DNA of 53,447 nt from Phycisphaerae bacterium (lineage in GTDB: Bacteria > Planctomycetota > Phycisphaerae > Sedimentisphaerales > Anaerohalosphaeraceae), in the NCBI GenBank assembly GCA_018433925.1, contig JAHDQI010000037.1, positions 1 to 53,447 of the forward strand, given 5' to 3'. Made by a program: the position numbers and the translations under genes. Of the stretch, positions 966-51,014 are shown piece by piece. The notes under the pieces were generated by a model, which was not told where the DNA came from, did no database searches, and saw only the letters and a list, made by a program, of their open reading frames with translations. The first letter of the stretch is position 1. Each line of letters begins with the position of its first letter.

Positions 966-2435
966 ATGAAAACAGCAATTTGCTTGTCCTTTCTGGCCGG
1001 GTTTTGCCTGTGCAGTTCAGCGACCGCCGCAGTGGGCTGGGAAGAGACTTTTGATCCGATCATGCCGACCTGGACGGAGACGAGTGCTTTTTGGACTGAT
1101 CATGCAGGGGCTACGGCTGTTCTGACGGAAAATGATCCGTTGTTGACGTATGGACTTACTGAATCCGAAACGATCACGCTGGATGTCGGAAGGTACAGTG
1201 AACTGGTAGTTCGATCTACAGCGATTGAAAGCGGGGTCCTGTACTCGGTTCAAATCCAGGAGGTCGGAGGCCAGGAGGCCTATGCTGATGCAGTCAGCTA
1301 CGAAGCAGAACCGGGTACACAGGTTGTCAATCTCAGCCGCCTGATGGGCTGGTCCGGTCAGAAGTCATTTCAAATTAATGTCTGGATCGAGGGCGACAAC
1401 GGGTCGGTTACTTTTGATCTGTTTCAACTTCGGGAACCGGCCAATACCGCCTGGGTCGAAGATTTTGATCCAATCAAAAACACATGGCTGGAAGATACGT
1501 GTACCTGGACCGATTCTCCGGAACCCGGGGCCGTATTGACGGAAAATAATCCTGAGGCATGGTACGGAGTTGCCCGGTCCGAACTGCTGGTTGTTGATGT
1601 CAATGACTATTGCATGTTGTACGTCAAAACATCCGCCGTTGAATCGGGATGCCTGTATACAATTCAGATCCATGAGGAAGGCCCCGATCCCGAATATGCC
1701 GAAGTCATCAGTTATGTAGGTGTGCCTTCCGAGCATATCGTCGATATCAGTGACCTGATGGATTGGTCAGAAGTCCGAAGATTTCGGATCAATATCTGGC
1801 TGGACGGGGAAGGGAGAAGCACTACCTTTGAGCGAATCGAACTGAGGAACAAAACAGAACAGACAAAACCCAACCCGGTGTTCTGGGAAGACGACTTTCA
1901 TCCCATCAAGCCCACCTGGTTTGAAATGGGGGCCCTCTGGGATGATTTTCCCGGTCCGGGAGCCACCCTGGTGGAAGACAACCCGGGGATGACCTATGGG
2001 AAGGTCGAGTCCGAATCTCTCCTGGTGGATCTGGATGTCTATCCGGCATTGACGATTTCAGTAATCGATATTGAAGCCGGGGCCTGGCTGGATGTAGGAA
2101 TTCAGGAACAAGGCGGCGCCTGGATGTATAAAGATGTCACCCCTACGATCATTGAACCCACCCGCGTCACCGTTAATATTGCCGAGTCAATGGGGTGGTC
2201 CGGGTATCATACCTTTCGCGTTGTTCTGTGGATCAACGGCAACAATAAATATGCCGCCCTGGATTTAGTACGTCTGGGGATGCATTGCGGAAGAAGCGTG
2301 CTGGCAGGAGATTACAATGAAGATTGTTCCGTCGATCTGCTGGATCTGAAGGTTCTGGGTCTGCATTGGCTGGACACCTATGGAATCTCTGATTTGGAAG
2401 AAGTCTCTGAGCATTGGCTGGAAGAGACATTCTGA
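966..2435 (+). CDS. Secreted protein with three tandem ~140-aa repeats of an uncharacterised domain plus a C-terminal dockerin-like segment
   Basis: Signal peptide [22 protein letters not shown]. Three repeats start [24 protein letters not shown] and [12 protein letters not shown], and each ends in a F-x-[IL]-x-LR-like strand. C-terminal segment is [22 protein letters not shown]. Confidence 0.8.
1038..2276 (+). repeat. Three tandem coding repeats (about 414-432 nt period) inside CDS 966-2435
   Basis: Repeat starts are at 1038, 1452 and 1884 (the W codons of W-[EV]-[ED]-x-F-[DH]-P-I-x-x-T-W). Conserved internal motifs are [AV]LTEN[DN]P, YG, SE, [AI]E[SA]G, IQ, M[GD]WS and [IV]W[IL].G. Confidence 0.8.
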
Positions 2436-2445
2436 ACAATAACTT

Positions 2446-2483: not shown

Positions 2484-2518
2484 TACGAATTAATCCGAAG
2501 CCAGGTAGGAAACAAAAA

Positions 2519-7552: not shown

Positions 7553-9799
7553 ATGAAACCGATTTGTGCCATCCTGCTTTGTGTTGTTCTCGTATTTGAC
7601 AGGGCTGTTTGCCTTGGAGAAATTACCGATCCGCTGGACAATACAGGATATCTGACAGCGGCGCTGAACAGCGAGGTATCCGCGGACGGGACAGCTTATA
7701 TGACCATTACAGACCCGGGCGATTCTGTTGTCAACTGGCGCCAATCCCATTATGTGAGACTGCGTAATTACAATGACCGCGTCGAAATTGATCCTGTGGC
7801 CCCCATCGGAAACGGGCAGTATTCCCTGTATGTTTTATTATTTAACAGTTCCAAACAGTGTCTTGCGGAAATCCAGTGGACGGAGGCCGGCGATATTTGT
7901 ACGACTCGGATCCTCAGTAGCGTAAGTCGCCTGGCTGCGGATAATCAGGTGCAGAATGTAGAGTATTACTGGATTCGTTTCCGCCTGCACGGCGACATCG
8001 GGGAGGGCTTTGAATTTGATGAGATTCGTGTTTGTAACGGGCCGGGTTTATGGCCGACCACCCCCTTAATCCAGTCGGCGCCCAGGGCGGTTCTGGGCCA
8101 TGTCATGACCGGATTTCGGACTCCGCCGATCAGCGGCACCTGGTCCGGCTGGAATTATTCGAACGCCTATGTCAGTCATAATCCTTATGTGCTGGACACC
8201 GAGGGAAGACCTGATATCGCATCCGTCTATTATCCCTCCGTCGGGTATTACGACATGAAGGATCCTAAGCTGATTGAATATCACTGCCAGTGTCTCAAAA
8301 TGGCTTGTATGGACGGAATGATCTTCGATCTGGGCTTCTATGACATGGATCCGGATACGGTTGCGATGATGAATGCCTATTTGGGAATGTTGTCTGAATA
8401 CGGCCTCAAGGCCGCCATCTGTTACGAAGACAAGGCGCACTGGATCTGGGACAGCGGAGCAGCAACACGGGCCATGGCCCTGCAGCGGGCCTATGAAGAC
8501 ATGAATAACTGGCTGGCCCTGTTTCTGGCCAGCGGAGCCCAATATGATGTGTCGGATCAAAGACCTCTGTTTCTGCTGTTCAGCTATGAGGATACCCATC
8601 CCCAGAAAGGGATTACTTGTCTTTTGCCGGATGAGATCGAAGACTGGCTGGACACCTTTGCCCCATCACAAAAGCCGGTTCTCATGCGGCAGTGGTTTAA
8701 GGATCCGGACCATGTCGGGATCTTAAACGGACCCTACGGCTGGCCGATTCTGCACCCGGCCCCTCCCGAAATGGCTCCTTATGTCGGGTATTGCTCGCTG
8801 GAGCAGAATCGTGAACAATTGGATTTCATTCGGGAGTTCGGGCAGTATTTGTTCTCAAGCAATCTGGCGAATTTTCACATGCCCGGAGTCTGGCCCGGGT
8901 TCGACGATCTTGCGATTTGGGGGTGGGGCGGCGGACCGCGACAGATGCCCCGATACGACGGCCAATTGTATGAGGAAACCTGGCAGTGGGCAATTGAGGA
9001 TATGTTGCCGGTGGTCCAGGTGGCTACATGGAACGATTGGTTTGAGGGGACGATTATAGAACCCTCCGTAGAGTTCGGAGGGGCCTATCTGGAAATCACC
9101 TCGCAGAAGGCCGCAGCATTTAAAGAAATCAACGATTGGACTGTTCCGGATGTCAATGTGCCGGTTTGGATTTATCGGATCCGGGATATCACGGCAGACC
9201 CCTGCGTGCTGGAGGAGTTGGAGACCGCGTCTGAATATATTAAGACCGGTCAGTTTGCCCAGGCCCGGACAATCGTCTCCTCTTGGGCGGACTATTTTCA
9301 GGTAGATTCTGTACTCTATTGGACCGGCCCGGGTTCTATTCAAACAGCACCTCAAATAGAGACACCTGTTTCCTGCAATTTCGGGATTGTGGAATATGGC
9401 AACTCGAGCACGGCCGTTGTGGAGATCAAAAATCAAGGTACGGCAGCGCTTCAATTTATCGGGATCAATCCGGCAGAGATCATAACCGGCCAGGATGATT
9501 TTTCCATTGATCCGGCCTTTCCAAGCGAAGATCTGTACGTCAACCAGCAGAGAGAGTTGTCAATTCTATTTTCTCCCCAAAGCACGGGATCCAAATCGGG
9601 AATCCTGAAAATCATATCGAATGACCCCGTTTCTCCGGCCGTATATGTTCAAATCGAAGGCCAGTGCGTTTTCAAACAAGGAGATTTCAATCAGGATGGA
9701 ACAGTAAACTTGGAAGATCTGGTTTGGCTGTCTCTTTGCTGGCTGGATACCTGCGGCCCGGATGAGTTGATTCTTACAGCAGAACACTGGCTCGATTAA
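7553..9799 (+). CDS. Secreted multidomain protein: N-terminal CBM-like domain, GH99-like catalytic domain, Ig-like (ASH/choice-of-anchor-D-like) domain and dockerin-like C-terminus
   Basis: Signal-like N-terminus MKPICAILLCVVLVF. YPSVGYYDMKDPKLIEYHCQCLKMACMDGMIFDL and VATWNDWFEGTIIEP are paralogous to 6307-7548. An Ig-like segment CNFGIVEYGNSSTAVVEIKNQGTAAL precedes ILKIISNDPVSPAVYVQIEG. C-terminal segment is GDFNQDGTVNLEDLVWLSLCWL. Confidence 0.7.
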   Translation: MKPICAILLCVVLVFDRAVCLGEITDPLDNTGYLTAALNSEVSADGTAYMTITDPGDSVVNWRQSHYVRLRNYNDRVEIDPVAPIGNGQYSLYVLLFNSSKQCLAEIQWTEAGDICTTRILSSVSRLAADNQVQNVEYYWIRFRLHGDIGEGFEFDEIRVCNGPGLWPTTPLIQSAPRAVLGHVMTGFRTPPISGTWSGWNYSNAYVSHNPYVLDTEGRPDIASVYYPSVGYYDMKDPKLIEYHCQCLKMACMDGMIFDLGFYDMDPDTVAMMNAYLGMLSEYGLKAAICYEDKAHWIWDSGAATRAMALQRAYEDMNNWLALFLASGAQYDVSDQRPLFLLFSYEDTHPQKGITCLLPDEIEDWLDTFAPSQKPVLMRQWFKDPDHVGILNGPYGWPILHPAPPEMAPYVGYCSLEQNREQLDFIREFGQYLFSSNLANFHMPGVWPGFDDLAIWGWGGGPRQMPRYDGQLYEETWQWAIEDMLPVVQVATWNDWFEGTIIEPSVEFGGAYLEITSQKAAAFKEINDWTVPDVNVPVWIYRIRDITADPCVLEELETASEYIKTGQFAQARTIVSSWADYFQVDSVLYWTGPGSIQTAPQIETPVSCNFGIVEYGNSSTAVVEIKNQGTAALQFIGINPAEIITGQDDFSIDPAFPSEDLYVNQQRELSILFSPQSTGSKSGILKIISNDPVSPAVYVQIEGQCVFKQGDFNQDGTVNLEDLVWLSLCWLDTCGPDELILTAEHWLD

Positions 9800-10087: not shown

Positions 10088-11848
10088 TTAGGGCAGCGGC
10101 TCCGTTAATGCCGTCGATTCCAGCCAATCGACAACGAGGATCGAAAGATCCGCAAGGTCAAAAGAACAGTCATCGTTAATGTCACCACTCAAAGGCGTAT
10201 ATCCCGGTACGCCCTTGGCGGCCTCACAAGGATCTGCATACACCTGAATCGTAACGGCATCGGAAGCTTCTAATTCTCCGTCATTGACAGTAAGCATCAG
10301 CGTATAGCTTCCGACTTGATCAATCGTCACGGTCGTGGCCTCTGCTGTCGGGCTGTTGATCACGACATTGGGATCCTCGGGTGCTTCTTCCCACAGGACC
10401 GTATAGGGACCAGGAACACCGTCATCGGTTATCGTCGGGGCCATCTGCACATCCACGGCACCCTCGGTCAGCCACGTGTAAACCGTATCCCCGGCATCTA
10501 CATCCGGCGGGAAATTGCTTAACTTCGTTTCAAACGACCAGACATACCCGGTAATTGTATTCGGATCATCTATGCCGGAAGGCACTCCGCCTCCTTTATC
10601 AAGGGCCTCATCGATACGCCAGAAGTACTTACCATCTTTGTTCAAGGACGCCGTTGCGGCCCCGGTATCTCCATTGGCAGGAATCTCTTCGCGATAATAA
10701 AGCGCAGGGTCACTCGACACATTCTGATCTTCACTCCTATAAACGTAATACTTCAGAACATTCGGATTGGGTATTGTACTATTGGGATCGCCTGGATCTA
10801 CTGTCAATCCTTTATCCCATCCCAGATTCACCGTAACAGTGTAGGTTCCGGTTGAAATCCCAACTTCAGTTGCGCTATCCTTAGGCATTGGATTCGAGGC
10901 ACTTCTACCCACATTGCACAGAAAATCAATCGGACTCAGGGCCGTATCCAAAATACGCACTTCATCGAGATATCCTTGATATCGGTTAAAATGTCCTTTA
11001 TTCACGAGTTCTCGGTAAAGCACCCAACCCCCGCCATGCCACGTGGAGTATATGTCATCATCAGCACCGAGGGCCGTATCCGGACTGCCTGATAAAGTCA
11101 TATCTACAGAGGCAATAACCTCGGTATCCCCACCATCCGTGATATTGGTTAGATACACCGTAAAGGTTGTTCCATCGCTTACCGCCGCGACATGATACCA
11201 CTTGCCCGCCTCAATAACATTGGCTGCTGATTGTACACTATGTTTAATGAGGGATACATCGACGAAAAAACTCTCAATCGACCATGCTGCCGTATCCGAA
11301 TCCGCATCGTGCACACGAAGTGCAAATGAAGAAGCTGACGGGTCTGCAGTACAATACTGATACGCATCACGACACACCAGAGTACCGACTTTACCAGCAT
11401 TCGACGGATCTTGTGAGCTGTCCGGATTAAACAACGCTTCCACTGTGAATTGAGCCGGTTCAATAAGCTCCGCATCAATGCCAGTTGGGTTGCTTCCGTA
11501 TACTGAATAAGCGTCAGCGGTTGACTGGGTATTTATACCTGGTTTTGTTCCGTAATTTTTAATACTCAGTTTATTCATCTGGCTCGTTTGGGGTACCATA
11601 GAAAAGGGGATATTGCCGCGATGCCAAAACGAACTATTGTTCGGAGTATCCGACCAGGCCTGTAAATGATTTCCATTTCCCGAAACGTCGTCAATGTCCT
11701 GAGAATAGCGGTAATCATCATATTCCGTGTAAATCAGCGTATCTGCAGTTCCCTCATCGGCTTTCCAATAAGCCACGGTAGCTGCATATACCGGAAAGCT
11801 CGAAACCAACACCAGGAACACCATTGATTTCCATACAAAAAGTCTCAT
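10088..11848 (-). CDS. Exported LamG-domain protein, 'head A + short tail' (LamG + FN3-like + PKD-like + dockerin-like)
   Basis: Start reassigned to ATG 11848, with GGAGG 7 nt upstream. It gives MRLFVWKSMVFLVLVSSFPVYA|ATVAYW, parallel to the start of 28964-33397. LamG motifs are DVSGNGNHLQAWSD and LDEVRILDTALSPIDF. PKD-like region runs from PPDVDAGDTVYTW through TITDDGVPGPYTVLW. C-terminal segment is GDINDDCSFDLADLSILVVDWL. Confidence 0.85.
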   Translation of the reverse strand: MRLFVWKSMVFLVLVSSFPVYAATVAYWKADEGTADTLIYTEYDDYRYSQDIDDVSGNGNHLQAWSDTPNNSSFWHRGNIPFSMVPQTSQMNKLSIKNYGTKPGINTQSTADAYSVYGSNPTGIDAELIEPAQFTVEALFNPDSSQDPSNAGKVGTLVCRDAYQYCTADPSASSFALRVHDADSDTAAWSIESFFVDVSLIKHSVQSAANVIEAGKWYHVAAVSDGTTFTVYLTNITDGGDTEVIASVDMTLSGSPDTALGADDDIYSTWHGGGWVLYRELVNKGHFNRYQGYLDEVRILDTALSPIDFLCNVGRSASNPMPKDSATEVGISTGTYTVTVNLGWDKGLTVDPGDPNSTIPNPNVLKYYVYRSEDQNVSSDPALYYREEIPANGDTGAATASLNKDGKYFWRIDEALDKGGGVPSGIDDPNTITGYVWSFETKLSNFPPDVDAGDTVYTWLTEGAVDVQMAPTITDDGVPGPYTVLWEEAPEDPNVVINSPTAEATTVTIDQVGSYTLMLTVNDGELEASDAVTIQVYADPCEAAKGVPGYTPLSGDINDDCSFDLADLSILVVDWLESTALTEPLP

Positions 11849-12052
11849 TTTTCTACCTCCGCATTTCATTTTATTTAACTTCGCATGATAACCTGTTCAC
11901 CGTATCCGTAAAGGGCACACCTCACACACAAACGATTTAAAATAGAATTCTCTACACGATCCGCTTATTTGTCAGGAAGGGAGTTTTTCTTCGAATAGTC
12001 ATCCCAATCGCATTATTTCGTTTGGAGTTCATAAATATCTCATTCTCTTACA

Positions 12053-17016: not shown

Positions 17017-19080
17017 TTATTCTACCGCATAGTTGGTCATAAGCCACGTTCCAGTGAGTTCGGCCAAATCCTCCAAATCAACCTCACAATCCCTGTTTAT
17101 ATCTCCCGGCAACCATTCAAAACCCGGTTGTGCTGCCGCATAAGAACAAGAATCGGCAAAGACGGTTACCTGTACAGTATCGGTGACCGTATACTCGCCA
17201 TCGTACACCTCGAGCTGAAGCACATAAATCCCGGTTTCTTTCAGCTCAGCAACAGCATTCTTAACCGCCGGATTAATAAAGCCAGAGGGATTCGAGTCAT
17301 TTGCATCCGTAACAATCGTCCAATTATAGGTTAGCGGAGCCACCAATCCATCATCGGTTACTGTAGGACTCATTGTCACCTGACGCGGCGGATCAGTCCA
17401 CCAAGTCTGACTATCTTCACCTGCATCCACTTCCGGCGTGAGATTAAAGGTATTAAACGTAAAGAAGGGGCCCATTACATCCTCAAGCCCATTCTTGTAG
17501 GTAGTAATCTGCCAGTAATATTGCTCACTCACGTCGATATCGACCAACACTGACTCAACCGATTGATTGGCCACAATCTTAGACATGAGAAGCAGATTCG
17601 GCTCTGTTCCAAAATAAACATCGCATGTCACAATATCGCCGGGCACGTTCGGTTCCGGAAGCGTCCACTGGAGCAGATCCAGCGTTGCTGATACGGTGCT
17701 GCCGTCAGCCGGGATTGGATTAAATAGGTGATATCCCCTTACTTCTGTAATGTCTTGAACCGAATCGTACACCACATCAATCCATCCATCACCGCCATAC
17801 GCGATGATTTTGCCGGCGGCTTTCAGATCGTCTATCTGTGTACGAGCATCCCAGTGAAGAATCAGTTTGCCTGGTCCTGCAAGATCAATCACCCCGTGCC
17901 CGGAGCTGTAATCAAGAATCACAAGTCCTGCGGAAGAGGTATTAGTTATCTCAACCGTACCCCCCTTCAGTTCAAAATACGTGCCGGTTTGTAATTTGAA
18001 ATATGAACTGATATTAATCTTGCCGCCGCTGACGATCCAATGCGACGGAGCTTCCGTATATTCGCTAAGTCTGAGAGTATACGTGTTGATTTCTCCGCCG
18101 GTCATCACAACATTACTGCTGGCGGTTGCGTAACTTCGCGCATCCATAAAGTTCCCCGTTACATTAATCGTACCACCGGACATAATGATCTCTGATTTAG
18201 CCCCAGCTCCTGCAACTAAACCCGGGGTATTAAGCTCGCCACCTTCCATAATAAGAGTGCCATGGGCATTCGCCCCGCTTACTCCAATCATTGCATCTGT
18301 TGGAAAAGTAGCCGTACCGCCGGTAATGCATAGAACACCTTCACAGGCCCAAGCACCACTTGTTTGACCCAAACGAAGTCTTCTGACATTTAGTGTACCC
18401 CCGTTGAGTTCAAAATAACCCTTGTTCCTGCCGGGAGTCCCATAATTGGCACCCACTCTAAAATAGTCTGCAGAAGACGTGGGTATCAGAACACTGCCAT
18501 CATTCACGATCCATTCCATTGTGCCCATTCCACCCAGCTGGATGCCCTGACCCATATACACGGTCCCGCCATCCATAATGATTAATCCATTGGCATCCGT
18601 GTCCGAACCCCTGAAATACATACCGTTCAACGTACCACCGGTCATATAGAGATAAGCATCACCGTCCTGTGCAAAATCCAAAATGTTACCGACGGTTATG
18701 GTCCCGTCGCTGATTTCCACATGCCCAACAGCTACCTCCGGACTCGAACTACCAGGCAAGGTCCAATCGATATCTACACCCAAGGTGCCGCCGGAAATTT
18801 GCATGGCTTGTGTCCCTGCACCTGCACCCGGACCAAAGAGAGCATCACACACCGCAGTTACTGTTCCGTCAATCACGGGACCCTGGGAAACAGAGGCATC
18901 TAACCACACTTCATCGTCTGCCGTCGGGACCTGATCAGTTGACCAGTTCTCCTCTGTACTCCACAAATCGTCCACGCCGCCTCCGTCCCAGGTAATTTCG
19001 GCGGCGATGGATGGATTGGCCAACAGGCCTACTGCCATGACAATAATCCAAACTACCCATTGTTTAACATAATCATTCAT
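17017..19080 (-). CDS. Exported beta-helix-repeat protein, 'head B + short tail' (G-G-T repeats + FN3-like + PKD-like + dockerin-like)
   Basis: GGAGGA lies upstream of ATG 19080. N-terminal anchor/signal MNDYVKQWVVWIIVMAVGLLANPSIAA. Repeats include MTGGTLNG, MDGGTVYM, LNGGTLNV, ITGGTATF, MEGGELNT, MSGGTINV, MTGGEINT, VSGGKINI and LKGGTVEI. The tail starts at PEVDAGEDSQTWW, runs through TVTDDGLVAPLTYNW and ends in GDINRDCEVDLEDLAELTGTWL. Confidence 0.85.
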   Translation of the reverse strand: MNDYVKQWVVWIIVMAVGLLANPSIAAEITWDGGGVDDLWSTEENWSTDQVPTADDEVWLDASVSQGPVIDGTVTAVCDALFGPGAGAGTQAMQISGGTLGVDIDWTLPGSSSPEVAVGHVEISDGTITVGNILDFAQDGDAYLYMTGGTLNGMYFRGSDTDANGLIIMDGGTVYMGQGIQLGGMGTMEWIVNDGSVLIPTSSADYFRVGANYGTPGRNKGYFELNGGTLNVRRLRLGQTSGAWACEGVLCITGGTATFPTDAMIGVSGANAHGTLIMEGGELNTPGLVAGAGAKSEIIMSGGTINVTGNFMDARSYATASSNVVMTGGEINTYTLRLSEYTEAPSHWIVSGGKINISSYFKLQTGTYFELKGGTVEITNTSSAGLVILDYSSGHGVIDLAGPGKLILHWDARTQIDDLKAAGKIIAYGGDGWIDVVYDSVQDITEVRGYHLFNPIPADGSTVSATLDLLQWTLPEPNVPGDIVTCDVYFGTEPNLLLMSKIVANQSVESVLVDIDVSEQYYWQITTYKNGLEDVMGPFFTFNTFNLTPEVDAGEDSQTWWTDPPRQVTMSPTVTDDGLVAPLTYNWTIVTDANDSNPSGFINPAVKNAVAELKETGIYVLQLEVYDGEYTVTDTVQVTVFADSCSYAAAQPGFEWLPGDINRDCEVDLEDLAELTGTWLMTNYAVE

Positions 19081-24030: not shown

Positions 24031-27000
24031 CTAATCACATTCAGGGGCAGTACATGTCAGCCAGTTTTCCACCAATACAACCAAATCTCCGATATTCACT
24101 CGACAGTCTCCGGTCATATCCCCCGGAGGAATCGGATCACACGTAGGAGCGGTACAAGTCAGCCAGTTTGCCGCCAGCACCACCATGTCTTCGATATTCA
24201 CGCGGCAGTCTTCTGTCGTATCGCCTGGAGAAATCGGATGAAGTGCATCGCCGCAAATACCTAAAAACACGGTCGAGCCATATTCATACGCACCCATATC
24301 TACCGATGTGTTGGCAATCCGGTTGTTGCCGTCCAGATCCGCCATCAGAGTGTCCGCAATCGCCGTATTCAATCCACTGTCAATACAGGGAGAAGGGGCC
24401 GTCAACCGATAATTATCATCCTCCGTACCGGCAATATTATCCGCACCATCTGGGTCTGTAAAGTTGGGGTTTAAATTGATATTCCCTTCACCCGACCAGC
24501 CGCCGTATACATCGCTATACTCAACCCAAAAAACACCTGTGCCATAGTAGTTTATTTCACTGCCGTCGTTCCACAAGATGGAATTGTTAATGGATATTAT
24601 CGTGCTACTCGAAGTCCCTATAGATAACGCTTTGCCGGCAATCGTTGCGGCATTACCCGCAAATGTACAGTTAATCACATTGCTGATGTTACCGTCAAAC
24701 CGAATCACACCCCCTTTATCTGATTGATTGCTGTTGAAGACACAGCTTAGGATATCGGTTATTCCGGGTTCCGTGGCAACGATAGCACCACCATACCCAA
24801 CGCTTGACTGTCCAAGTATCGTCTGATTCCCAATGAAGTAACTGTTGGATATTACAACTGAATCTGACCCATAGTTCGAAATAGCACCACCATATACAGT
24901 GTCAACGGCTGCCGTATCGCCGCCGTTTTCAATGAAAATACAATCATCGATTTCGACATCACCGCTATATTGTAACCGGATAGCACCGCCGCTGCGGCTG
25001 ATGTTGCCTTCAAACCGGCAACCTTGTATCTTAGAAGATGATTTTCCTGCGTAAATAGCACCGCCATAAGTAGTAGCACTGTTTCCTATGAACTTGCAGT
25101 TTTGAAGGGTCGGTGAGCCAGTCGTCCAGACAATAAGACCACCTCCTGCATTGTGCGGTGAAGCCGATTTGGCATTGCCTCCGGAAATGGCAAACCCATC
25201 CAGAATCGTCGTCTCATCCGTATCATCCCCGATAATAACATGACGAGAATTCTCATCATTATTGGTAAAATTGGGTCCGTCGTCGCCGGCTAAATCACCG
25301 GAAAGAAGCGTCACATTGTTCTCATAATCTCTTTGGGAAAGAGAGGTTTCCGACCCCGCAAAGCCGCCGTAAACAGCAACGCCGTTCTTCAGCTCAAACG
25401 CCTCATAACAGGCAAGATCAGCATTCACATCCTGCGTGGGTTTATAGGTTCCCTCGGCAACCCAGATTTGATCACCGTATTCAGCTCTGGCCAGGGCATC
25501 CTGCAAATCACAAAAAGCATTGGTCCAACTGGAACCGTCATCTTGACCCGTTGCGTCCGCATCTACATATATCACATCATTATAACCGCCGAAATTCAAA
25601 CTGTACAATTGCCCTTTGTGGATAGTAATACGTAGCTTAATGGGTCGATTGGGAAGATCCTTTATACTCCAATCGTTCCATCGTAGCGGATAATTGACAG
25701 AGTCACCTGCAAATTCTGCACCGGAACTGCCTGAATAATTCGACAGGCCATTTCCATATTCATCCAGCACCTCTACGAGAATATAGCCATTCGGATCTGT
25801 TTTGGCATTGATATTTAATGTCTGAGCTGCAGACAAAACCTTGGTTGTCAGCGTTCCGGTATCGGTTGAATTACCCAGCCGGACCCAGCCGTCTTTGCGG
25901 TATTTTATCAGGCCCGGCGTTACTAACAAATCCTTGGTTGCATCGACGATATTGTCCCATGACGAGCCGTACCAATCCCAAATCTCCGAAGCGGGAAGTC
26001 CTTTTTCCTCGTCGCCAAACATACCATCGAATCGATTTAGAAAATACTCTTCCGTTATGTAAGAACGGTCGACTCGACCGTAAGCCGAAGTAAACATAAA
26101 ATGCGGGCCGTCCATTCCGGCAATCGGTTCAATATATTCACTGCCGGTATCCAGTCTCATTCGGATAGTATAAAAAGCAAAACCGAAATTCCAACTGCCG
26201 AATTCACCGCTATCAAAAAATGGTTGTTGATCAAACCGGTTCCATTGAATACCATCTCGGCTGTAAGCCAGATCCACACGGGTTATCTGGGTAACCTGAT
26301 TATACATTCGGACATAGCTTAGCTCCAGGGCATCTTCTTCTTCATTAAAAACATGAACGGCATAATGCTGAAGGCCGGGGGTTTCCTGTTCATCAGGCAT
26401 ATCAAAATACGTAGGGGTCCAGTTTACGCCATCCTGAGTACTCCAGGTAACCATCATTCGGCTTGCAGGAAGATTGTCATAATAGACTCTGAAAGGATCG
26501 TTTCGGGGAATGGTTCGAGCCTGGTAAAATCGAAGCGTGTTGCCGTCCATGCTCAGGTGTTCGGGGCCATAATTGTCATTGGAGTCCTGCCACTCACCGA
26601 TTTCGTTGTCATCGAACTCCCATTTACCTTTGACAATGGGCTCCGGCGTTAATATCAGATATTCGCCATTGGGTCTTTCCCAGACGGCAATCCGACTCCA
26701 GTTGGGCAGGGTTATATCACCCAATATCATCGGTTGGGATTCGGACTCATATACGGAAACCTGCCCCAGATTAACAGGTCCATCTTCTTCCGGGTCATAG
26801 TAGTCATAGCTCGGAGTACCTGAAAACTGATACTGTACTTTGGCTTTATCAAATGTGATAACGTTGTAACTGTAATCGCGATTCTCCGGCTCTGACACAA
26901 TACTCCAGTTCTCGTAATCATCGCTGACCACCCAGTATTCAACTACATCCACCCAGTTTCCACTGGAATCTTGTCCATTTCTGCCATGCAACTTTACATA

Positions 27001-27504
27001 CATCTTTCCATCCTGGCCGATCCAGAAATCTCTCACCCAATTGATATAACGATAATAATCGGGATTTGATTCCCAGGGCGCTATGGGAATGGCCTGCCCC
27101 TCCTCAACCTCTCTGGTCAGTCCGCTTTGAGAAGCGATATACCAGTCGTCTACGAACAGGATTTTTTTTCCTGCAACGTCAATCGGCTCGCTGGGAGCCT
27201 GTGGAGCAGTAATTGTTTGCTTGCGAATGCCGCGAATCATTGTACCCGTGTCCTGAGAGCCCCCCCCCACCTCTTGTATTAATACTTCATAATCACCATC
27301 CGGCCAATTGCTAATATCAATATTTTCTTCCTGTAGTCCTCCTTGTGAAGCATAGACTGTCACTTGTATTGGGGAAGCCGGAGACGTACCGGTGATATGG
27401 TCGCGAAATGTCAACTCAACATCAATGTCATTAACCCCCCAATATTGGAAAGCCAATATTGCAGTATTGTCGTTCAAATAAGCCGATCGAACGGATTCGA
27501 CCTC
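24031..27504 (-). repeat. Long-tail cassette copy 1 (about 3.47 kb), paralogous to 28964-32443
   Basis: Colinear similarity to 28964-32443 at nt level, roughly 80-90% by eye. It includes an 88-nt stretch with one mismatch (25350-25437 vs 30301-30388). Confidence 0.85.
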
Positions 27505-28848
27505 AAAACGTTTACCCGTAATTTGTGTTATATCCTGTTCCGGATCATACACTACTACGACTTGCCCATCACCGCCGTAGGCGACTATTTTGCCATCGGC
27601 CGTCAAATCATCTATCTGTGTACGAGCATCCCAATGGAGAAGCAATTTACCGGTCCCTGAAATATCAAGCACACCATGCCCGGAAGTGTAATCCAGCATC
27701 ACTAACCCCACAGAACTGGTATTAGTTATCTCAACCGCACCACCCTTCAGTTCAAAATACGTACCGGTCTGTAATTTAAAATACGAACTGACATTAATCT
27801 TGCCGTCTGTAACAACCCAATTCGACGGGGCTTCCGTATATTCGCTAAGTCTGAGAGTGAATGTGTTGATTTCTCCGCCGCTCATTTCAACATAACTGCT
27901 GGCAGTGTCGCAACTTCGCGCATCCATAAAGTTCCCCGAGACATTTATCGTACCGCCGGACATCTGAATCGTCGAATGAGCACCCGCACCTGCAACCAAC
28001 CCTGCAGTATTGAAAGTGCCGCTTTCCATGATAAGAGTACCATAGGCCCCCGCTCCGGTTACTCCAATCATCGCATCCGTGGGAAAAGTAATTGTACCGC
28101 CAGTCATGCGCATAACACCGTCGCAGAGGTAACTGCCGGTTGTCTGGCCCAAGCGAAGTTTTCTGATATTATGAGTACCGCCATTGACTTCAAAATAGCC
28201 CTTGTTCTCAGCGGTCGTCCCATAATTGGCACCCACCCGAAAATAGTCTGCAGAACTCGTGGGTATCTGGATACTGCCGTCATTTACGATCCAGGACATC
28301 GTGCCCATGCCGCCAAGCTGGATGCCTTGTCCCATATACACTGTCCCGCCATCCATGATGATTAAGCCGTTGTCATCCGTATCCGAACCTTTAAAATACA
28401 TGCCGTTAATCGTGCCACCGGTCATGTGGAGATAGGCGTCACCATCCTGTGCAAAAGCAAAAAGGTTACCAACCGTTATGGTTCCGTCACTGATTTCCAA
28501 AGATGCTTCATCTACACCCGTATCGCCAGGCATGGTCCAATCGGCAGTTATACCCAATGTACCGCCAGAAACTTGCATTGTCTGGCCCGACCCGGGACCA
28601 ACAATAGTATTACAAACCGCAGTTACCGTTTCGTCAATTATTGGGCCTTGAGAGATGGAGCCATCCAGCTCAACGTCATCTGCCACCACCGGAGCTAGAT
28701 CTGTTGACCAGTTCTCAGGCGTACTCCACAAATCACCTGTACCGCCGCCATCCCACGTAACAGTTGCGGCGACCACCGGATTGACCAGCATCCCAATCGC
28801 CATAACAAAAATCCATATTGCTACTTGCCTAACATAATCATACCTCAT
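24031..28848 (-). CDS. Giant exported protein, 'head B + long tail': G-G-T beta-helix head, uncharacterised propeller-like region, beta-sandwich, parallel beta-helix (GGAI repeats) and two Cys-rich dockerin-like repeats
   Basis: Start set at ATG 28848 ([27 protein letters not shown]), parallel to the start of 17017-19080. The head is about 85% nt-identical by eye to 17728-19080. The core begins [10 protein letters not shown]. The beta-helix begins [47 protein letters not shown] and carries [24 protein letters not shown] and YGGAIVAT. The C-terminus has two copies of GD.[19 protein letters not shown].CD. Confidence 0.85.
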   Translation of the reverse strand: [1605 protein letters not shown]

Positions 28849-28963
28849 TTTAAGCCCCCCGCATGTTAAGATTAAAATAAACTTTTTGAATATTCTAACC
28901 AAAACTAATGATTTCATTATGTTTGTTTATTCCTTATTTTGTCAATTTTCATTAAACACATAT

Positions 28964-31900
28964 CTAATCACATTCAGGGACAGTACAAGCCAACCAGTTT
29001 TCCGCTAACACAGCCAAATCTCTGATATTCACTTTGCAGTCTTCCGTCAGATCGCCGGGGGGAATCGGATCACACGCAGGGGCGGTACAAACCAGCCAGT
29101 TGGCCGCCAGCACCACCATGTCTTCAAGAGTTACCCGGCAGTCTTCCGTCAGATCGCCCGGAGGAATCGGATGAAGCGCATCGCCGCAAACACCCAAAAA
29201 CGGGGTCGAACCATATTCATAAGCCCCCATGTCGACTGTTGTATTCGAAATTCGATTGTTGCCGTCAATATCCGCCAGAAGATTGGCCGGGACAACCGCA
29301 TTATTTCCGCTGTCAATACAAGCAGACGGAATCGTCAGCCGATAATCATCATCTTCCGTACCGGCAACATGATCCGCACCCTCCGGGTCTATAAAGTTGG
29401 GAAGTAAACTGACATTTCCTTCGCCCGGCCAGCCGCCGTATACATTGCTGTACTCAACCGAGAAAAGATCTGAATTGTAGCTTATTTCACTGTTGCCGTC
29501 CCATAATATGGAGTTTCTGACGGATACTACCGCAGTGCCGCTTGAAGTTCCCGATATCCCTTTTCCGCTAATCATTGCGGCATTTCCCGCAAAGGTACAA
29601 TTGATAATATCACTGCTTTGAGTATCAGAAAATTGATTGGCGCCAAGTTGGATGGCGCCGCCTCTGCCTGCCTTATTGCCGTTAAATACACAGTTTCTGA
29701 TATGGGCAGTTGTTCCGGGCTCCATCATAATAGCACCGCCATAACCCACATTCGTCAGACTCAGCGTTGTTTGATTGCCGATAAAGTAACTGTTGGATAT
29801 CACAGGCGAGTCTGCATCCCAGTTCGAAACGGCGCCGCCGTATCGTGTTTCAATTGTTTCCGTGCTGCCGCCATTTTCAATGAAAATACAATCATCAATT
29901 TCGACATCACCGCTGTATTGTAAGCGGATAGCACCGCCGCTGCGGCTGATATTTTTCTCAAACCGGCAACTCTGTATCTTCATCGACGATTTTCCTGCAT
30001 ATATTGCCCCGCCATAAGTAGTTGCGCTGTTTCCTGTGAAAGTGCAATTGCGAAGGGTCGGAGAACCAGTCGTCCAGACAATTAGACCACCTCCTGCATT
30101 ATGCGGTGACGCCGCATCCCCGGCACGGCCTCCGGTAATAGTAAACCCATCCAGAATCGTTGCCGCATCCGTATCATCCCCAATAATGATATGACGGGAA
30201 TTCTCATCATTATTAGTAAAATTAGGTCCGTCATCGCCGGCTAAGTCACCGGAAAGAATCGTTTCGTGATTTTTATAATCTCTCTGGGAAAGAGCGGTCT
30301 CCGACCCCGCAAAGCCGCCGTAAACAGCAACGCCGTTCTTCAGCTCAAACGCCTCATAGCAGGCAAGATCAGCATTCACATCCTGCGTAGGTTTATAGAC
30401 CCCCTCAGCAACCCAGATTTGGTCGCCGTATTCAGCGCTGGCCAGGGCATTCTGGAGATCGCAAAAGGCATCGGCCCAACCGGAGCCGTCATTTTGACCC
30501 GTCGCATCCGCATCTACATATATCACATTGTTATAACCGCCAAAATTCAAGCTATATAATTGGCCTTTGTAGATTGTAATACGAAGTTTTACGGGTTGAT
30601 TGGGAAGATCCGTTATGCTCCGGTCGTTCCAGCGCAGCGGGGAATTGACCGAGTCGCCCGCAAATAATGCACCGGAATCCCCCGAATACTCAGGCAGATC
30701 AGTTCCATACTGGTCCAGTACCTCAACCAAAATATAGCCATTCGGATCCGTCTTGGCATTAATATTTAATTTGGAACCGGCAGACAAAATCTTGGTTGTC
30801 ATCATTCCGGTATCGGTTGCCTGGCCCAGCCGGACCCAGCCGTCTTTGCGATATTTAATCAATGCCGGAGTGATCACCATATTTTTGGTTGCATCAACGA
30901 TGTGATCCCATGACGAGCCGTACCAGTCCCAAATCTCAGAATCGGGAATTCCGCCCTCCCCGGCAAGCCGACCCTCGAATCGATTCAAATAATAGTCTGT
31001 GGTTATATAAGAGCGGTCTTTTCTGTCATAAGCCGTAAGAAACATAAAGTGCAGCACATTGATTCCAAAGATCGGCTCAAAATATTCCCTGCCGTTGTCC
31101 AGTCTGGTTCGACTCTCTGGAAAATAAGAGTAACCAAAATTCCAACTGCCAAATTCGCCGTTCTCTAAAAATGGCTGTTGACTAAATCGGTTCCACAAAA
31201 TACCGTCTCGGCTGTAAGCTAAATCAGCAGAGAGCTTCTGATCTGCCTGATCATACATTCGGACATAGCTCAATTCCAGGGCATGTTCTTCTTCATCAAA
31301 AACAAAAACTCCGTAATGCTGAAGTGCAAACGTTTCACATTCATCAGGAACTTCAAAATACGCAGGGCTCCAGGTCACGCCGTCCTGACTACTCCAGGCA
31401 ACCAGGATTCTGCTTGCGAGAATGTTATCATAATAGACTCTAAGAGGGTCATTTCGGGGAATATTACGAGTCTGATAAAATCGAAGCGTATTGCCGTCCC
31501 TGCTCAAGTGTTCCGGACCATAATTATCATTTGCATCCTGCCATTGACCGATTTCGTTGTCCTCAAATTCCCCTTTAACCCGGACAATGGGTTCGGGCGT
31601 TAAGATCAGGTATTCACCATTAGGTCTTTCCCATACGGCAATCCGACACCAGTAAGGTATGGTGATATCCCCCAACACCAGGCCGGGCTTGACCTTGTAC
31701 ACAGAAACCTGACTCAAATTAACAGGGCCATCCTCTTCCGGATCATAGTAGCGATAGCTCGGAGTCCCTAAAAACAGATTCTTCACTTTGGTTTTATCAA
31801 ATGTGATCATGTCATAACCGTAATCACGATCCTCCGGCTCCGCCGCAACATCCCAGTTTTCGTAATCGTCGCTAACGACCCAGTACTTCAATTCATCCTG

Positions 31901-46359: not shown

Positions 46360-48450
46360 TCAATAAATAAAATCTGCTTCGTCAGTCAGCCATGCAACAT
46401 CAAAAAGGGCAAATCGTATCTTTTCAATAGAAGACGTCTGCCCGCATTCATATAAAAGACCGATGGTTTTGTCCGGCAAAACCGTCAGGCACGAATATCC
46501 GGCCGGCCCGGTCTGTAGGGTTTTGGCCACCGGCCAGCTCTGCCCTTCATCGTAACTCATCCGAACCGTCATATTGACACGATGAGAACCGGAGGCCGGA
46601 TTGCTGAATAAAATCCGATGGCGATCCTCGACGCCCTGCTTGGTAAAACGCAGAATACTGGCCTGGCAAACCGGTTCAATCAACTGCGGATCGTAGGACA
46701 CCGCGCTCCAAGAACTGCCGTAGGTATAACTATGCGAATACCGGCGCCCGTAAAGGCCGCCTTTGCGTATATTGTTGAGCAATACCCCTGAACTTAATTC
46801 CACCACCTGACTTTCGCTGCCGGCGTTGACATATCCCCCGATCTGCCAGCTTTGTCCGTGGTCGTCACTGTAAAAAATGTGATTGTTGCCCGTCGTTCCG
46901 CCACCGTGACTACACGGAATAATCAGGCGGCCGGCATACGGCCAGGCGGTGGTTTGAATGCCAACCCCCGGACCCAGGTTATAATGGGTCCAACTCTCCA
47001 GCTTGACCTGCGCGGTAATGTTTTCCGCCGCCGACCAGCTTGCCCCTGAATCATCGCTCCAGGTCGCCCAGACCGTGCACGACGAAAGGCCCAAACCGGC
47101 TGCCGGATTGTTGGAATCCCAGTTTTCGGGATACCGCGCGTGAAACAGCCAGATTCGACCGGTTGTTCGGTCCGCAACGGCGCAGGGATCCATCAGGGCA
47201 TGGTTGCCGTCATCCCGGACGGTTTGAACGGGCAACCAGCTTGTCTGGCCGGGCAACCGTCGGCGAAGGACAAGTTTCGTAGGCGTTTTGTCAGTGGAAC
47301 TGATTTTCCGGGCTTCAGCAAAAGCCAGAATGGTTCCATCATCAGCCGTCACCACGGCCGGAATCCGGTACGTATGAATGCCCCCCATTCCCTGCCAGAA
47401 AAGGTCCGTTTGAACCGGCGGCTGAGCGGGATGCCGAAGAGCAGGAATCTGCTCGGCCGGCGTAAGCCAGTCAGAGGCCAATTGAACTGCGTCTTCCAGA
47501 TCCACCGTGCAGTCCTGATTGATGTCGGCCGGCGGATACACCCCAGCGATCTCAGATGAAACAGACCAGTCAGCGGCCAGCCGGGAAAAGTCTTCAAAAT
47601 CCACGGCAAGGTCCTGCGTAATATCGCTGAGCGGATAGCTGTCCGGCTCGCAGGGGCAAACAGGCTTTATCGAATAGGCCTCCATTAAAAAAGTCTCGAT
47701 CAGGACTCGGTCCGGATCGCTTAAAGCGTTCTGATAAATCACGAATTCGGCCAGATCAAACTGGCCATAGTAGCTGCCGAGGTAACGATTACCGATGCGC
47801 AGGCCCCCCAAGGCATGAGAGCCGCCGTGGCCGACCTGCTGCAAAATTCCATCGATATAATGGGATGTATCAGTCCCGTCGAAGACAATCGTATGAACCG
47901 AAAGCCGGTTTAGCCGAACCGCCGCCGAATACAACACCGCCCCTGCCCCGGTCATCCAGGTGCCCGGATAGACGGCACTGCCGACGGCCAGAAAATGCCG
48001 CGAATCGGAGGAAAGCCCGTCAAAAATATATTCGTTTTTATAATTTCTGGTATCGACAACCAGAAAGAAGGTGCTCGGCTGGGCCAGCATCTGCGAAAAA
48101 ACCGAATCCAGAAAATCGTCTATTCCGTCAAATCGAACCACCGGCCGGCTGCCCCAGACCCCCTCCAAGTACACGGGACGGTTTGCGGCCGTCGCCTGCA
48201 GCGCATGATGGCCGGCTCCCGAACTGTCCGCCCAGACGGCCGCCGGACCCCGATCCGTTGCCGGCTGAGTCATCCCGATGTCCGCATAAACACCGTGTTC
48301 CGCCTGAAGATGCAGGTGCAAGGAGCCGGAAGCCGCGGCCGGGAGCGAACCGCCCCAAACCCTCCCGGCACACAGGAAAACCAGGCAGAAGAACGACAAA
48401 AAACATCCGCCCGGATGCAGGCAAGGCCGTTGGGTCAATAGGGATACCAT
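46360..48450 (-). CDS. LamG domain + internal dockerin-like pair + GH33 exo-alpha-sialidase
   Basis: Signal peptide is present. LamG motifs are DSSGAGHHALQ and DLAEFVIYQNALSDPDR. The internal segment SDITQDLAVDFEDFSRLAADW is followed by ADINQDCTVDLEDAVQLASDWL. The sialidase has YRIPAVVTADDGTILAFAEAR and Asp-boxes SDDSGASWS, SDDHGQSWQ and SYDEGQSWP. The ATG at 48450 overlaps the upstream gene by 16 nt. Confidence 0.85.
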   Translation of the reverse strand: MVSLLTQRPCLHPGGCFLSFFCLVFLCAGRVWGGSLPAAASGSLHLHLQAEHGVYADIGMTQPATDRGPAAVWADSSGAGHHALQATAANRPVYLEGVWGSRPVVRFDGIDDFLDSVFSQMLAQPSTFFLVVDTRNYKNEYIFDGLSSDSRHFLAVGSAVYPGTWMTGAGAVLYSAAVRLNRLSVHTIVFDGTDTSHYIDGILQQVGHGGSHALGGLRIGNRYLGSYYGQFDLAEFVIYQNALSDPDRVLIETFLMEAYSIKPVCPCEPDSYPLSDITQDLAVDFEDFSRLAADWSVSSEIAGVYPPADINQDCTVDLEDAVQLASDWLTPAEQIPALRHPAQPPVQTDLFWQGMGGIHTYRIPAVVTADDGTILAFAEARKISSTDKTPTKLVLRRRLPGQTSWLPVQTVRDDGNHALMDPCAVADRTTGRIWLFHARYPENWDSNNPAAGLGLSSCTVWATWSDDSGASWSAAENITAQVKLESWTHYNLGPGVGIQTTAWPYAGRLIIPCSHGGGTTGNNHIFYSDDHGQSWQIGGYVNAGSESQVVELSSGVLLNNIRKGGLYGRRYSHSYTYGSSWSAVSYDPQLIEPVCQASILRFTKQGVEDRHRILFSNPASGSHRVNMTVRMSYDEGQSWPVAKTLQTGPAGYSCLTVLPDKTIGLLYECGQTSSIEKIRFALFDVAWLTDEADFIY

Positions 48451-49277: not shown

Positions 49278-49347
49278 CGTTTTTCTCCTGAAAAAAAGAC
49301 AGGTCAGGGCCGACTCGAAAAATCGACCCTGACGAATGGATATCCCT

Positions 49348-51000
49348 TTAATCACACTCCGGATCTCCCGGCCTCGTACACTTGAGCCATTCCTGAACAA
49401 AAACCGCAAGGTCGGAAACACCCACCACGCAGTTTTTATCAAAATCCATCTCGTTATACACGGTATAAGCCGCCCCGCATACCGGCCCGATCCCGTACTT
49501 GGTAAACAGCGACTGCTCCACACCTTGACGAACCGAATGTTCCAGGGCGCCTTCGTACATAAGGACTTCGGCCAGATCCCCTTCGAACAGATTGTCCGTT
49601 CTATTATACCGCGAACCGACTGTAAGCCCCTCAAACGGAAGATGCCCAATATAATCATATTCGGGATCGCCCGCGAAGCCGTCCACATAAATCTGTGAAC
49701 AAACGCCGTTGAAAACCAGAGAATAGACCTGCCAGAGGCCGACATCCGGCGTGTAACTACGCAGATAATACTCGGAATAAAGAGCCAGCGTCCTCGGGGA
49801 CCCGTCCGCCATAAACGCGCGGCGGTTGGTCACGTCCAGACCGTCCAGAATATACGTCGCCCTGTCATCGGCGCCGCGACGCGCCACAACGAATACCGTC
49901 GTCGGGGTTTCCGCGTCAATCAAACCGGCCTGCAGGGCGCTTTGCAGGCCGTTGGCGGACCCGTCAAAACGAATTACCGGCTGCGTTCCGGACAGAAAGC
50001 TTTCCGCCGCGAGAAGCGGCAGGGCCGGATCATCCTCCGAAGAGGATGGATTTGTGCCCAACAGGTCCATATCGCCGACCTGGTCGTTCCATGAGGTCAC
50101 ACGGCCGTATCCGTTGGCTGTCACGTCCATGCCGTCATAACGGGCAATCAGCGTGCCGGGACCGGTATTCGGACACGGACTCGGAATCGGGTATTTCTCA
50201 ACCAGAAATTGAAAAACGGCATCGCGGTCCGCCGCATCCAGCGCCCCCTGGTAAATAACCAGTTCGGCCACATCCATATCACTGTTCATCGTCCCGCCGT
50301 TATGAGCGCCCAGGTTCATCCCGGTGTTCAGACGGTTGGTTCCCACCGTTCCGCCTCCCATGTACTCCAATTCAGGAGGACTGGGAAGAACCTGCTTGCC
50401 GATATAGTGCTCAAGCGATCCGGAATTGAAAACCACCGCGTGAATCTGCAAAACCGTCTGCGTCACCTTGCTCGTATGCAGATTGGAGCCGGCCCAGAAA
50501 TACCATTCGCCGGGCTGCGCCGTTCGGCCGACCGCCATAACCTGGCGGTCAGTGCTGTTGATGCCGTCAAAGACATAGCGGTTGGTCGTCTCCCGCGTAT
50601 TCAATACGACAAAGAGTGTGTTGGGCTGCTCAAGCTGGTGAAAACCGGCCACATTGGGATCGGAAGCGTTTGGATCCAGGGGACCCGTGCCGAAAAAGAT
50701 GCTCAGAAAATCATCATCCCGGTCAAATTTCAAGGCCGGCATCCCGTCCGCAACGTTGGGATCCCAGATCGGCCTGCGCGCAGGATCAAGCTGCACAGCG
50801 TGGTGGCCGTTGCCGCTCCGGTCCTGCCAGAAACCAACGCCGTCGCCGATCCAAGCCGCGGTACCGTCCGGCTCCGTATAAACCCCGCTGTCAGCGCTCA
50901 AATGGGTATGCAGGATACCGCTGCCCACCTCGGGTAAAGCCCGGACAAGCGGACAGAAAACAAAAAAAACCGCCCCGATGAAAATCATTCTTTTTCTCAT
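49348..51000 (-). CDS. Secreted non-catalytic protein with two LamG domains and a C-terminal Cys-rich dockerin-like segment
   Basis: ATG 51000 with AGGAGAA upstream gives MRKRMIFIGAVFFVFCPLVRA. Motifs include DRSGNGHHAVQ, DVAELVIYQGALDAADR and GDLAEVLMYEGALEHSVR. The C-terminus is DFDKNCVVGVSDLAVFVQEWLKCTRPGDPECD. Confidence 0.8.
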   Translation of the reverse strand: MRKRMIFIGAVFFVFCPLVRALPEVGSGILHTHLSADSGVYTEPDGTAAWIGDGVGFWQDRSGNGHHAVQLDPARRPIWDPNVADGMPALKFDRDDDFLSIFFGTGPLDPNASDPNVAGFHQLEQPNTLFVVLNTRETTNRYVFDGINSTDRQVMAVGRTAQPGEWYFWAGSNLHTSKVTQTVLQIHAVVFNSGSLEHYIGKQVLPSPPELEYMGGGTVGTNRLNTGMNLGAHNGGTMNSDMDVAELVIYQGALDAADRDAVFQFLVEKYPIPSPCPNTGPGTLIARYDGMDVTANGYGRVTSWNDQVGDMDLLGTNPSSSEDDPALPLLAAESFLSGTQPVIRFDGSANGLQSALQAGLIDAETPTTVFVVARRGADDRATYILDGLDVTNRRAFMADGSPRTLALYSEYYLRSYTPDVGLWQVYSLVFNGVCSQIYVDGFAGDPEYDYIGHLPFEGLTVGSRYNRTDNLFEGDLAEVLMYEGALEHSVRQGVEQSLFTKYGIGPVCGAAYTVYNEMDFDKNCVVGVSDLAVFVQEWLKCTRPGDPECD

Positions 51001-51014
51001 GCCATTCTCCTGTT

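Follow-up and report, generated by a model that had tools for sequence, protein, structure and literature searches.

Type I dockerins (PF00404) of clostridial cellulosomes, such as those of C. thermocellum Xyn10B (1OHZ_B) and CelS (2MTE) and of B. cellulosolvens (2Y3N_B), are C-terminal modules of secreted glycan-active enzymes, built from two F-hand repeats that lie ~34 residues apart and contain a calcium (Ca) loop of the form D-x-N/D-x-D-x-x-V-N/D-x-x-D with Asp at position 12. These features recur in short protein segments, here called tags, that are encoded in a 53,447-bp stretch of DNA (hereafter the window; contig JAHDQI010000037.1 of assembly GCA_018433925.1) from a Phycisphaerae bacterium of the Anaerohalosphaeraceae. 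Unlike type I dockerins, the tags have Cys in place of Gly at loop position 6, an added N-cap (CGDxxHPxP) and C-cap (WLxCTxPxCD-COOH) and, along with these caps, 4-6 conserved cysteines, and a helix that invariably closes in Trp-Leu; their repeat position 10 is hydrophobic, whereas C. thermocellum dockerins carry their Ser/Thr cohesin-recognition pair there. Many copies, moreover, have one repeat only, and the host is a Gram-negative member of the Planctomycetes-Verrucomicrobia-Chlamydiae (PVC) group with no cohesin in the window.

The existence of dockerins with no visible cohesin has long been an unsettled matter outside Firmicutes, and a survey by Peer et al. reportedly listed many non-cellulosomal dockerins without known cohesins. 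The naturally truncated group-2 dockerins of Ruminococcus flavefaciens contain a single loop and are functional, with ScaE as cohesin partner (PMC12270676). They resemble the single-loop tags of the window by architecture alone, a comparison with which the loop-less extra helix of two tags (in the proteins encoded at 966-2435 and 7553-9799) also fits, but they have no cysteine clasp. In the Phycisphaerae, the Sedimentisphaerales isolate L. sulfuriphilus encodes a Coh2-Doc1-Coh1 protein as well as 13 proteins that are dockerin fusions (PMC11557425), and a 'planctosome' was proposed for Nemodlikiaceae (PMC6461901), and therefore cohesin-dockerin pairs exist in this lineage. The dockerins of these reports come from the same phylum and class and sit, as here, on non-cellulolytic cargo, but they gave standard InterPro/Pfam dockerin and cohesin matches, and Cys-rich CTxPxCD-COOH and single-loop forms were not described there. 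No description of the Cys-clasped CTxPxCD-COOH variant or of the single-loop forms was found in the literature searched. Dockerins on non-cellulosomal Planctomycetota proteins are thus already known, and what is new here is the Cys-clasped variant with terminal CTxPxCD-COOH, together with the single-loop forms.

The closest curated bacterial model is NF041540, 'GC-type dockerin domain-anchored protein', under whose cut-off the tags fall. With PEP-CTERM/exosortase signals, which two other proteins of the locus carry, the tags share a C-terminal location on exported proteins after choice-of-anchor domains. Unlike those signals, they have no transmembrane helix or Arg-rich tail, ending instead in ...WLxCTxPxCD or short polar tails without a hydrophobic stretch, and they fold into a Ca-loop module, which can also lie within a protein.

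Tags on eight proteins and their dockerin ancestry

A six-frame regular-expression (regex) scan of the window found 10 tag units matching D-x-[NTDS]-x-[DN]-[C/G]-x-[VIFL]-x3-D-x3-[hydrophobic]-x3-W-L, with L, V, M, I, F or A allowed at the helix hydrophobic position and L or Q after W; every one of the 10 is in frame with a long open reading frame (ORF). Residue-shuffled frames yielded a mean of 0.07 loose motifs and no motif with W (the window has a G+C content of 49%). An eleventh, degenerate unit, DITQDLAVDFEDFSRLAADW, was recognized by eye in a sialidase, 34 residues before the regex unit, and in total the 11 units are spread over eight long-ORF proteins. A preliminary description of the window had placed tag segments on the same eight proteins, with two internal copies in the sialidase and three proteins ending in ECD, and the scan and the translations agree with it on each point, coordinates included. 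The proteins and their tags are listed below, with unit positions in amino acids (aa); the tags outside the sialidase were identified by regex, and that of giant protein 1 also by translation, AlphaFold2 (AF2), Foldseek and profile comparison.

966-2435, +: triple-repeat protein, regex unit at aa 449; single-loop tag at 2286..2432, C441...GDYNEDC454, with a Dockerin_1 match of 15 bits over positions 1-23/57
7553-9799, +: GH99-like protein, regex unit at aa 711; single-loop tag at 9665..9796, GDFNQDGTVNLEDLVWLSLCWL plus helix DELILTAEHWLD
10088-11869, -: LamG/PKD protein, regex unit at aa 563; single-loop tag at 10091..10228, C548...GDINDDC568SFDLADLSILVVDWL
17017-19080, -: tagged protein, regex unit at aa 660; single-loop tag at 17020..17148, C645...GDINRDC665EVDLEDLAELTGTWL
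24031-28917, -: giant protein 1 (1628 aa), with signal peptide, PMP/beta-helix repeats and, directly ahead of the tag, a choice-of-anchor Q domain (aa 1501-1546); regex units at aa 1566 and 1600; C-terminal 76-aa double module GICGDALHP...CTAPECD at 24034..24261
28964-33397, -: giant protein 2 (1477 aa), with LamG domain, PMP repeat and, ahead of the tag, a choice-of-anchor Q domain (aa 1352-1395); regex units at aa 1415 and 1449; C-terminal 76-aa double module at 28967..29194, 80% identical to the giant 1 tail
46360-48450, -: sialidase, units at aa 309 (regex) and aa 275 (degenerate); internal two-repeat module, aa 265-331, at 47458..47658, between the LamG and BNR catalytic domains
49348-51000, -: LamG protein, regex unit at aa 610; single-loop Cys-rich tag at 49351..49479, PVC599G...DFDKNC615VVGVSDLAVFVQEWLKC632TRPGDPEC640D

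Each unit consists of a 12-residue Ca-type loop followed by an amphipathic helix that closes in the invariant Trp-Leu. Oxygen ligands were assigned to loop positions 1, 3, 5, 9 and 12 in each unit, where the window residues are D; N, T or D; D or N; N, D, T or G; and D, respectively. By this reading of the sequence the Ca-ligand positions are those of dockerins, with position 12 occupied in every tag by Asp and not by the Glu of EF-hands. Position 6 is Cys in 9 of the 11 units, replacing the canonical Gly, and every window tag with this Cys has another Cys 13-20 residues upstream. All eight tagged proteins begin with a signal-peptide-like N-terminus (read from the sequence, with no predictor), and in three of them the NCBIfam scan places a choice-of-anchor Q or D domain directly before the tag; such domains, going by their NCBIfam naming, we take to sit ahead of alternative C-terminal surface anchors.

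A profile of 33 double modules (alignment A3, made of window sequences and profile-search matches) matched type I dockerins in the PDB over both repeats and without a register shift, with E-values of 1.7e-7 for 8x39_A, 4e-6 for 2y3n_B, 9e-6 for CelS (2mte/1daq) and 2-4e-5 for Xyn10B (2ccl_B/1ohz_B); C. cellulolyticum 2vn5/2vn6 were also matched, and the overall range was E 1e-7 to 4e-4. Structure prediction covered the double module only: AF2 modelled the giant 1 tail with the 33-sequence alignment at a predicted local distance difference test score (pLDDT) of 95.7 and a predicted template-modelling score (pTM) of 0.82, with helices at 23-31 and 57-65, against a pLDDT of 38.7 from the giant tail sequence alone. 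In a Foldseek search of the PDB with this model, the first 17 matches were all dockerins, led by 2y3n_B (TM 0.79, root-mean-square deviation 1.8 A over 59 columns, probability 1.0) and including type II dockerins (2b59_B and 3kcp_A) and NagH (2ozn_B); the small size of the domain keeps the Foldseek E-values weak (1e-2). As a reciprocal check, Dockerin_1 was found in 70 of the 81 top profile matches without a Cys tail and in 19 of the 85 Cys-tail proteins. The tags' membership of the dockerin (F-hand) superfamily, and the dockerin fold of the double form, are therefore well supported by sequence profiles and a predicted model. The term 'dockerin-like' of the preliminary description is upheld by the in-register alignment to PDB dockerins, by the modelled fold and by the Dockerin_1 proteins that the profile retrieved.

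Two tandem repeats ~34 residues apart are present in both giants and in the sialidase, and not in the five proteins with a single loop (966-2435, 7553-9799, 10088-11869, 17017-19080 and 49348-51000). Two of these five add a loop-less second helix, which in 966-2435 follows the first one; the other, 7553-9799, has Gly at loop position 6 and a choice-of-anchor D domain ahead of the tag. The giant 1 tail comprises an N-cap CGDxxHP and two 34-aa units at 24136-24237 and 24034-24135, each of which has its own Ca-type loop, helix and WLxCTxPxCD, and ...PECD is the C-terminus of both giants and of 49348-51000. The interval 24031-24262 given in the preliminary description is that of the 76-residue tail GICGD...ECD together with its stop codon. 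That description counted the tag twice in each giant, and two units are indeed present; they are better read not as two separate tags but as one complete two-repeat dockerin-like module that arose from a 34-codon duplication. The internal pair of the sialidase, whose loops lie 34 aa apart with the first one degenerate, probably forms one such module likewise.

The pair in the giants is a tandem duplication of exactly 34 codons (102 nt; 24034-24237 and 28967-29170, both on the - strand). Units within a giant are 76-78% identical in nucleotides (80/102 nt in giant 1), and corresponding units of the two giant paralogs 82-85%; because identity between the paralogs exceeds that within a giant, the tag duplication is older than the giant gene duplication. 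A close relative on a syntenic ENA contig (P0084; L042 10001-13471) has an unduplicated single tag. The two adjacent paralogs have their central and C-terminal ~1,100 residues in common and differ in their N-terminal regions, which consist of autotransporter-associated beta-strand-like TWDGGG repeats in giant 1 and a LamG domain in giant 2.

The Cys-rich variant and the wider family

A DNA pattern back-translated from DC-x13-WLxCTxPxCD, searched against one genome per GTDB species, found the Cys-rich variant at 41 loci, where ~0.3 would be expected by chance (our own estimate). Nearly all are in metagenome-assembled genomes of Planctomycetota (Sedimentisphaerales, other Phycisphaerae, Anaerohalosphaeraceae and 'uncultured Pirellulales'), a near confinement with which the PVC origin proposed in the preliminary description fits. 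A stop codon directly follows CD in 36 of the 41 loci and one further locus runs off its contig, so that the motif is terminal in 36-37. Most of the loci hold exactly one unit. The consensus of the Cys-rich form is CGDx[C]HPYPxGDxNxDCxVDxxDFAxxAxxWLxCTxPECD-COOH; in the alignment of single tags (A2), loop residues D1, D5, C6 and D12, then W-L and C-T-x-P-x-C-D are invariant, and D1, D5 and D12 are also invariant in A3.

Of 412 non-redundant units, 46% carry Cys and 40% Gly at loop position 6. An upstream Cys, 5-22 residues before, accompanies 90% of the Cys-6 units vs 35% of the others (odds ratio 16; as the sequences are related, the p-value overstates their independence), and this association points to a disulfide clasp that may tie the N-terminal lead-in to the Ca loop. 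The two cysteines of the terminal C-T-x-P-x-C occur together or not at all. Solvent-facing helix positions and the invariant C-terminal CTxPxCD are conserved across distant cargo types.

In one related locus (L035) the tag at 5204-5278 (+) contains an in-frame stop codon, for which selenocysteine was considered and rejected, the codon being TAG and not TGA. It falls at a variable residue of ...CTRP*CDG (* marks the stop) in an otherwise intact tag, and is a nonsense change or a sequencing or assembly error. Separately, a weak match to an Omp28-type selenoprotein was seen.

An exhaustive search of 1.84 billion representatives with a profile of the giants' 76-residue tail matched 1,806 proteins at E<=1e-3, each a representative cluster at 50% identity. 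Word-index protein searches, whether started from the 85-aa tail or from the tag alignment, returned almost no matches, which reflects a limit of the index and is not a sign of rarity. Three types of match were seen in the profile search. Single Cys-rich tags form the first. The second is a frequent double module, mostly of exactly 76 residues including two before the first Cys, of the form CGDxxHPYPxGDLNxDCxVNWxDF..FA..WLxxGCxxPxWCGGADLNxxGxVNxxDF..FA..WLECTAPECD, and hence equal to the giants' tail in length and register. In the third, dockerin-like repeats are followed by a PEP-CTERM anchor; several repeats precede the anchor in P0098, P0099, P0148, P0158, P0165, P0181 and P0203, and judged from this layout such anchored repeat carriers could partner the single-loop tags. 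A further group of ~1,100-aa subtilases (Peptidase_S8; P0054, P0057-P0059, P0062, P0080 and P0121) has 7-11 Dockerin_1 stretches each, an unusually high number.

The cargo of the wider family includes beta-propellers (NHL, SGL, SBBP, RCC1, PD40), beta-helix/PMP adhesin-like proteins, BlaR1-type peptidases and Ig-like domains, and the tag thus marks exported proteins in general. The view of the preliminary description that it belongs to glycan-active proteins was not supported by this survey, as beta-propellers, beta-helix proteins and peptidases predominate. Database records call the relatives 'hypothetical protein' or leave them without a name, an annotation that follows from the Pfam and NCBIfam models largely missing this sub-family. 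It is large, found mainly in Planctomycetota, and defined by the signature CGDxxHPxP, then DxNxDCxV, then WLxCTxPxCD-COOH, and a dedicated model would re-annotate many exported Phycisphaerae proteins. The 45-76-residue, apparently disulfide-braced Ca module offers a handle for pulling down its receptor and for probing the surface retention of glycan-degrading enzymes, and a small single-repeat disulfide-stabilised dockerin could serve as an affinity or assembly tag.

Proposed docking to a receptor and its alternatives

We consider it fairly probable that the tags are divergent dockerin-superfamily modules on Sec-exported proteins of the locus, which dock them to a cohesin-like receptor encoded outside the window. 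After Sec export, Ca2+ would fill the tag loops, and the terminal Cys pair may form a second disulfide besides the clasp between the upstream Cys and the loop Cys, so that disulfides would brace a very small module outside the cytoplasm. The helix faces would then dock the enzyme non-covalently on the cohesin-like receptor encoded elsewhere, and this docking, which we infer to be Ca-dependent, would keep glycan-harvesting enzymes at the cell surface. By analogy, the five single-loop tags may act as do the Ruminococcus flavefaciens dockerins that are naturally truncated to one loop.

Several results weigh against this reading. Whole-protein Pfam scans gave no Dockerin_1 match at E<=0.1, and the isolated window tags scored 19.9, 19.4, 15.0, 16.0, 13.1 bits or nothing against the PF00404 cut-off of 22.9 bits, their matches covering positions 1-23/57 only, that is, the first repeat. 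NCBIfam dockerin_GC (NF041540) gave 13.7 bits for the giant tail vs a cut-off of 29. A single loop, and hence an incomplete dockerin, is all that five of the eight tagged proteins possess, and the Cys at loop position 6 displaces the Gly normally needed for the loop turn. The alignment given to AF2 was one of canonical double modules, whereas the giants' pair is a separate duplication, and the model may therefore be shaped in part by the alignment. In addition, no Pfam cohesin match was found in the 31 window ORFs, in agreement with the preliminary description, and all-against-all clustering of 809 ORFs from 43 sources revealed no neighbour gene family shared across 42 related loci beyond orthologous synteny.

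NF041540 also stayed below 29 on the canonical double modules of the family (19.2-25.8 bits), aligned with the whole double module (positions 10-64/67), gave no match to single-loop tags and matched 6 of 85 family members at E<=0.01. Among the Pfam models EF-hand_1/5/6/7, weak matches were restricted to the 7553-9799 tag (12-16 bits vs cut-offs of 25-30). The check by dockerin hidden Markov models that the preliminary description had proposed thus had a borderline outcome: the window tags fall under the curated cut-offs, and profile comparison and structure prediction rescue them.

Two candidates for a partner within the window were considered. Three prepilin-type genes (N_methyl/DUF1559, H-X9-DG) with N-terminal signals each lie directly downstream of a tagged gene (966-2435, 17017-19080 and 49348-51000):

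2414-3334, +: prepilin-type gene
15968-16804, -: prepilin-type gene
48435-49277, -: prepilin-type gene

Prepilin proteins were rejected as a general receptor, with such a gene present within 8 kb in only 1 of the 41 related loci; in the syntenic relative (L042), two prepilin-type genes stand beside a LamG/PKD gene. The second candidate, 966-2435, has a scaffoldin-like layout, with a signal peptide, three ~138-aa repeats (39-44% identical) and the single-loop tag. Its repeats gave no sequence match in the PDB and only a weak CBM96 match in Pfam, and a role as cohesin scaffold was left unsupported by hhalign against CipA cohesins (probability 0.5%).

EF- and F-hands function in pairs, a single F-hand being an incomplete unit, and the tags might instead represent split dockerins that pair with each other or with the F-hand repeats on PEP-CTERM-anchored proteins, independently of cohesin; such pairing would build oligomers of enzymes or keep enzymes tied to the cell. 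This is unlikely in our judgement, although EF-hand pairing is established knowledge, exactly one unit is present in five window proteins and in most of the 41 loci, two single units joined in tandem pack, by prediction, as a dockerin-like pair, dockerin-like repeats are combined with a PEP-CTERM anchor in P0098, P0099, P0148, P0158, P0165 and P0181, and the window has no cohesin. Against it, a cohesin is bound by the single-loop R. flavefaciens dockerins (PMC12270676), tags are absent from both PEP-CTERM proteins of the window, and a single tag may pack on its own preceding domain. We regard as slightly more doubtful still the specific proposal that half-dockerins complete their fold in trans in a Ca2+-dependent manner, giving surface enzyme assemblies in Planctomycetota without cohesin or scaffoldin, for which the 34-codon duplication of the giants would be the same pairing captured in cis.

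A purely structural role, in which a Ca2+- and disulfide-stabilised cap or linker shields the C-terminus or an interdomain junction from proteolysis and has no partner, appears about as improbable as the split dockerin. In the sialidase the module links two domains, stabilisation is suggested by the conserved cysteines, and no partner was detected in the window scans or the related loci; against this, the conservation of the helix surface and of CTxPxCD exceeds what a cap needs, the tags follow choice-of-anchor domains, and every dockerin fold characterised to date serves, to our knowledge, as a dedicated module for binding proteins. Finally, ...CD-COOH might be the recognition or cleavage determinant of a C-terminal sorting or secretion signal read by a dedicated export or processing machine, as would suit the strictly C-terminal Cys-rich form (a stop right after CD in 36 of 41 loci), the three window proteins ending in ECD, the diverse cargo and the upstream choice-of-anchor domains. 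We hold this to be very unlikely and the weakest of the alternatives because the tags have no membrane anchor (neither a hydrophobic membrane-spanning segment nor a basic tail), one copy is internal, in the sialidase, and their dockerin ancestry is clear. Multi-copy arrays of the unit also occur, no conserved processing gene lies nearby, and the organism already uses PEP-CTERM on other proteins. The 'sorting system' of the preliminary description finds no support.

Locus context

Pfam and NCBIfam scans of the 31 ORFs describe a glycan-scavenging locus, which, as its gene content indicates, is one for sialic-acid, N-glycan and arabinan scavenging. It encodes five BNR sialidase-like proteins, two GH99-like proteins, GH130, GH127 and a GH51-like arabinofuranosidase. 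The sialic-acid genes encode a sialate O-acetylesterase, a NanA-type lyase, a GlcNAc 2-epimerase and a NanM-symporter fusion, and a KDPG aldolase, a PfkB kinase and XylR/AraC and GntR regulators are also present. The Pfam and NCBIfam PEP-CTERM models match two proteins only, neither of them tagged, and with the prepilin-type signals these are the two further signal types that the preliminary description had reported in the locus, both confirmed by the scans. The features concerned are as follows.

114-893: PEP-CTERM protein
13314-14432, -: uroporphyrinogen decarboxylase-like (URO-D) gene, between BNR sialidase-like genes
38069-40708, -: NanM-symporter fusion in one ORF, N-acetylneuraminate epimerase (NanM/Kelch) plus sodium:solute symporter
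40711-41952: GlcNAc 2-epimerase, sialic-acid catabolic cluster
41962-44211: SASA/GDSL esterase, sialic-acid catabolic cluster
45426-46349: NanA, in the sialic-acid catabolic cluster with the fusion ORF
52149-52907: PEP-CTERM protein

The arrangement around the URO-D gene is conserved on the syntenic ENA contig (L042 4878-5984). The mechanically called ORFs 48435-49745 and 49348-51273 (-) overlap by ~400 nt, and their likely true starts are a GTG near 49277 for the prepilin-type protein and the ATG at 51000 for the tagged LamG protein, which begins MRKRMIFIG... and has a signal peptide.

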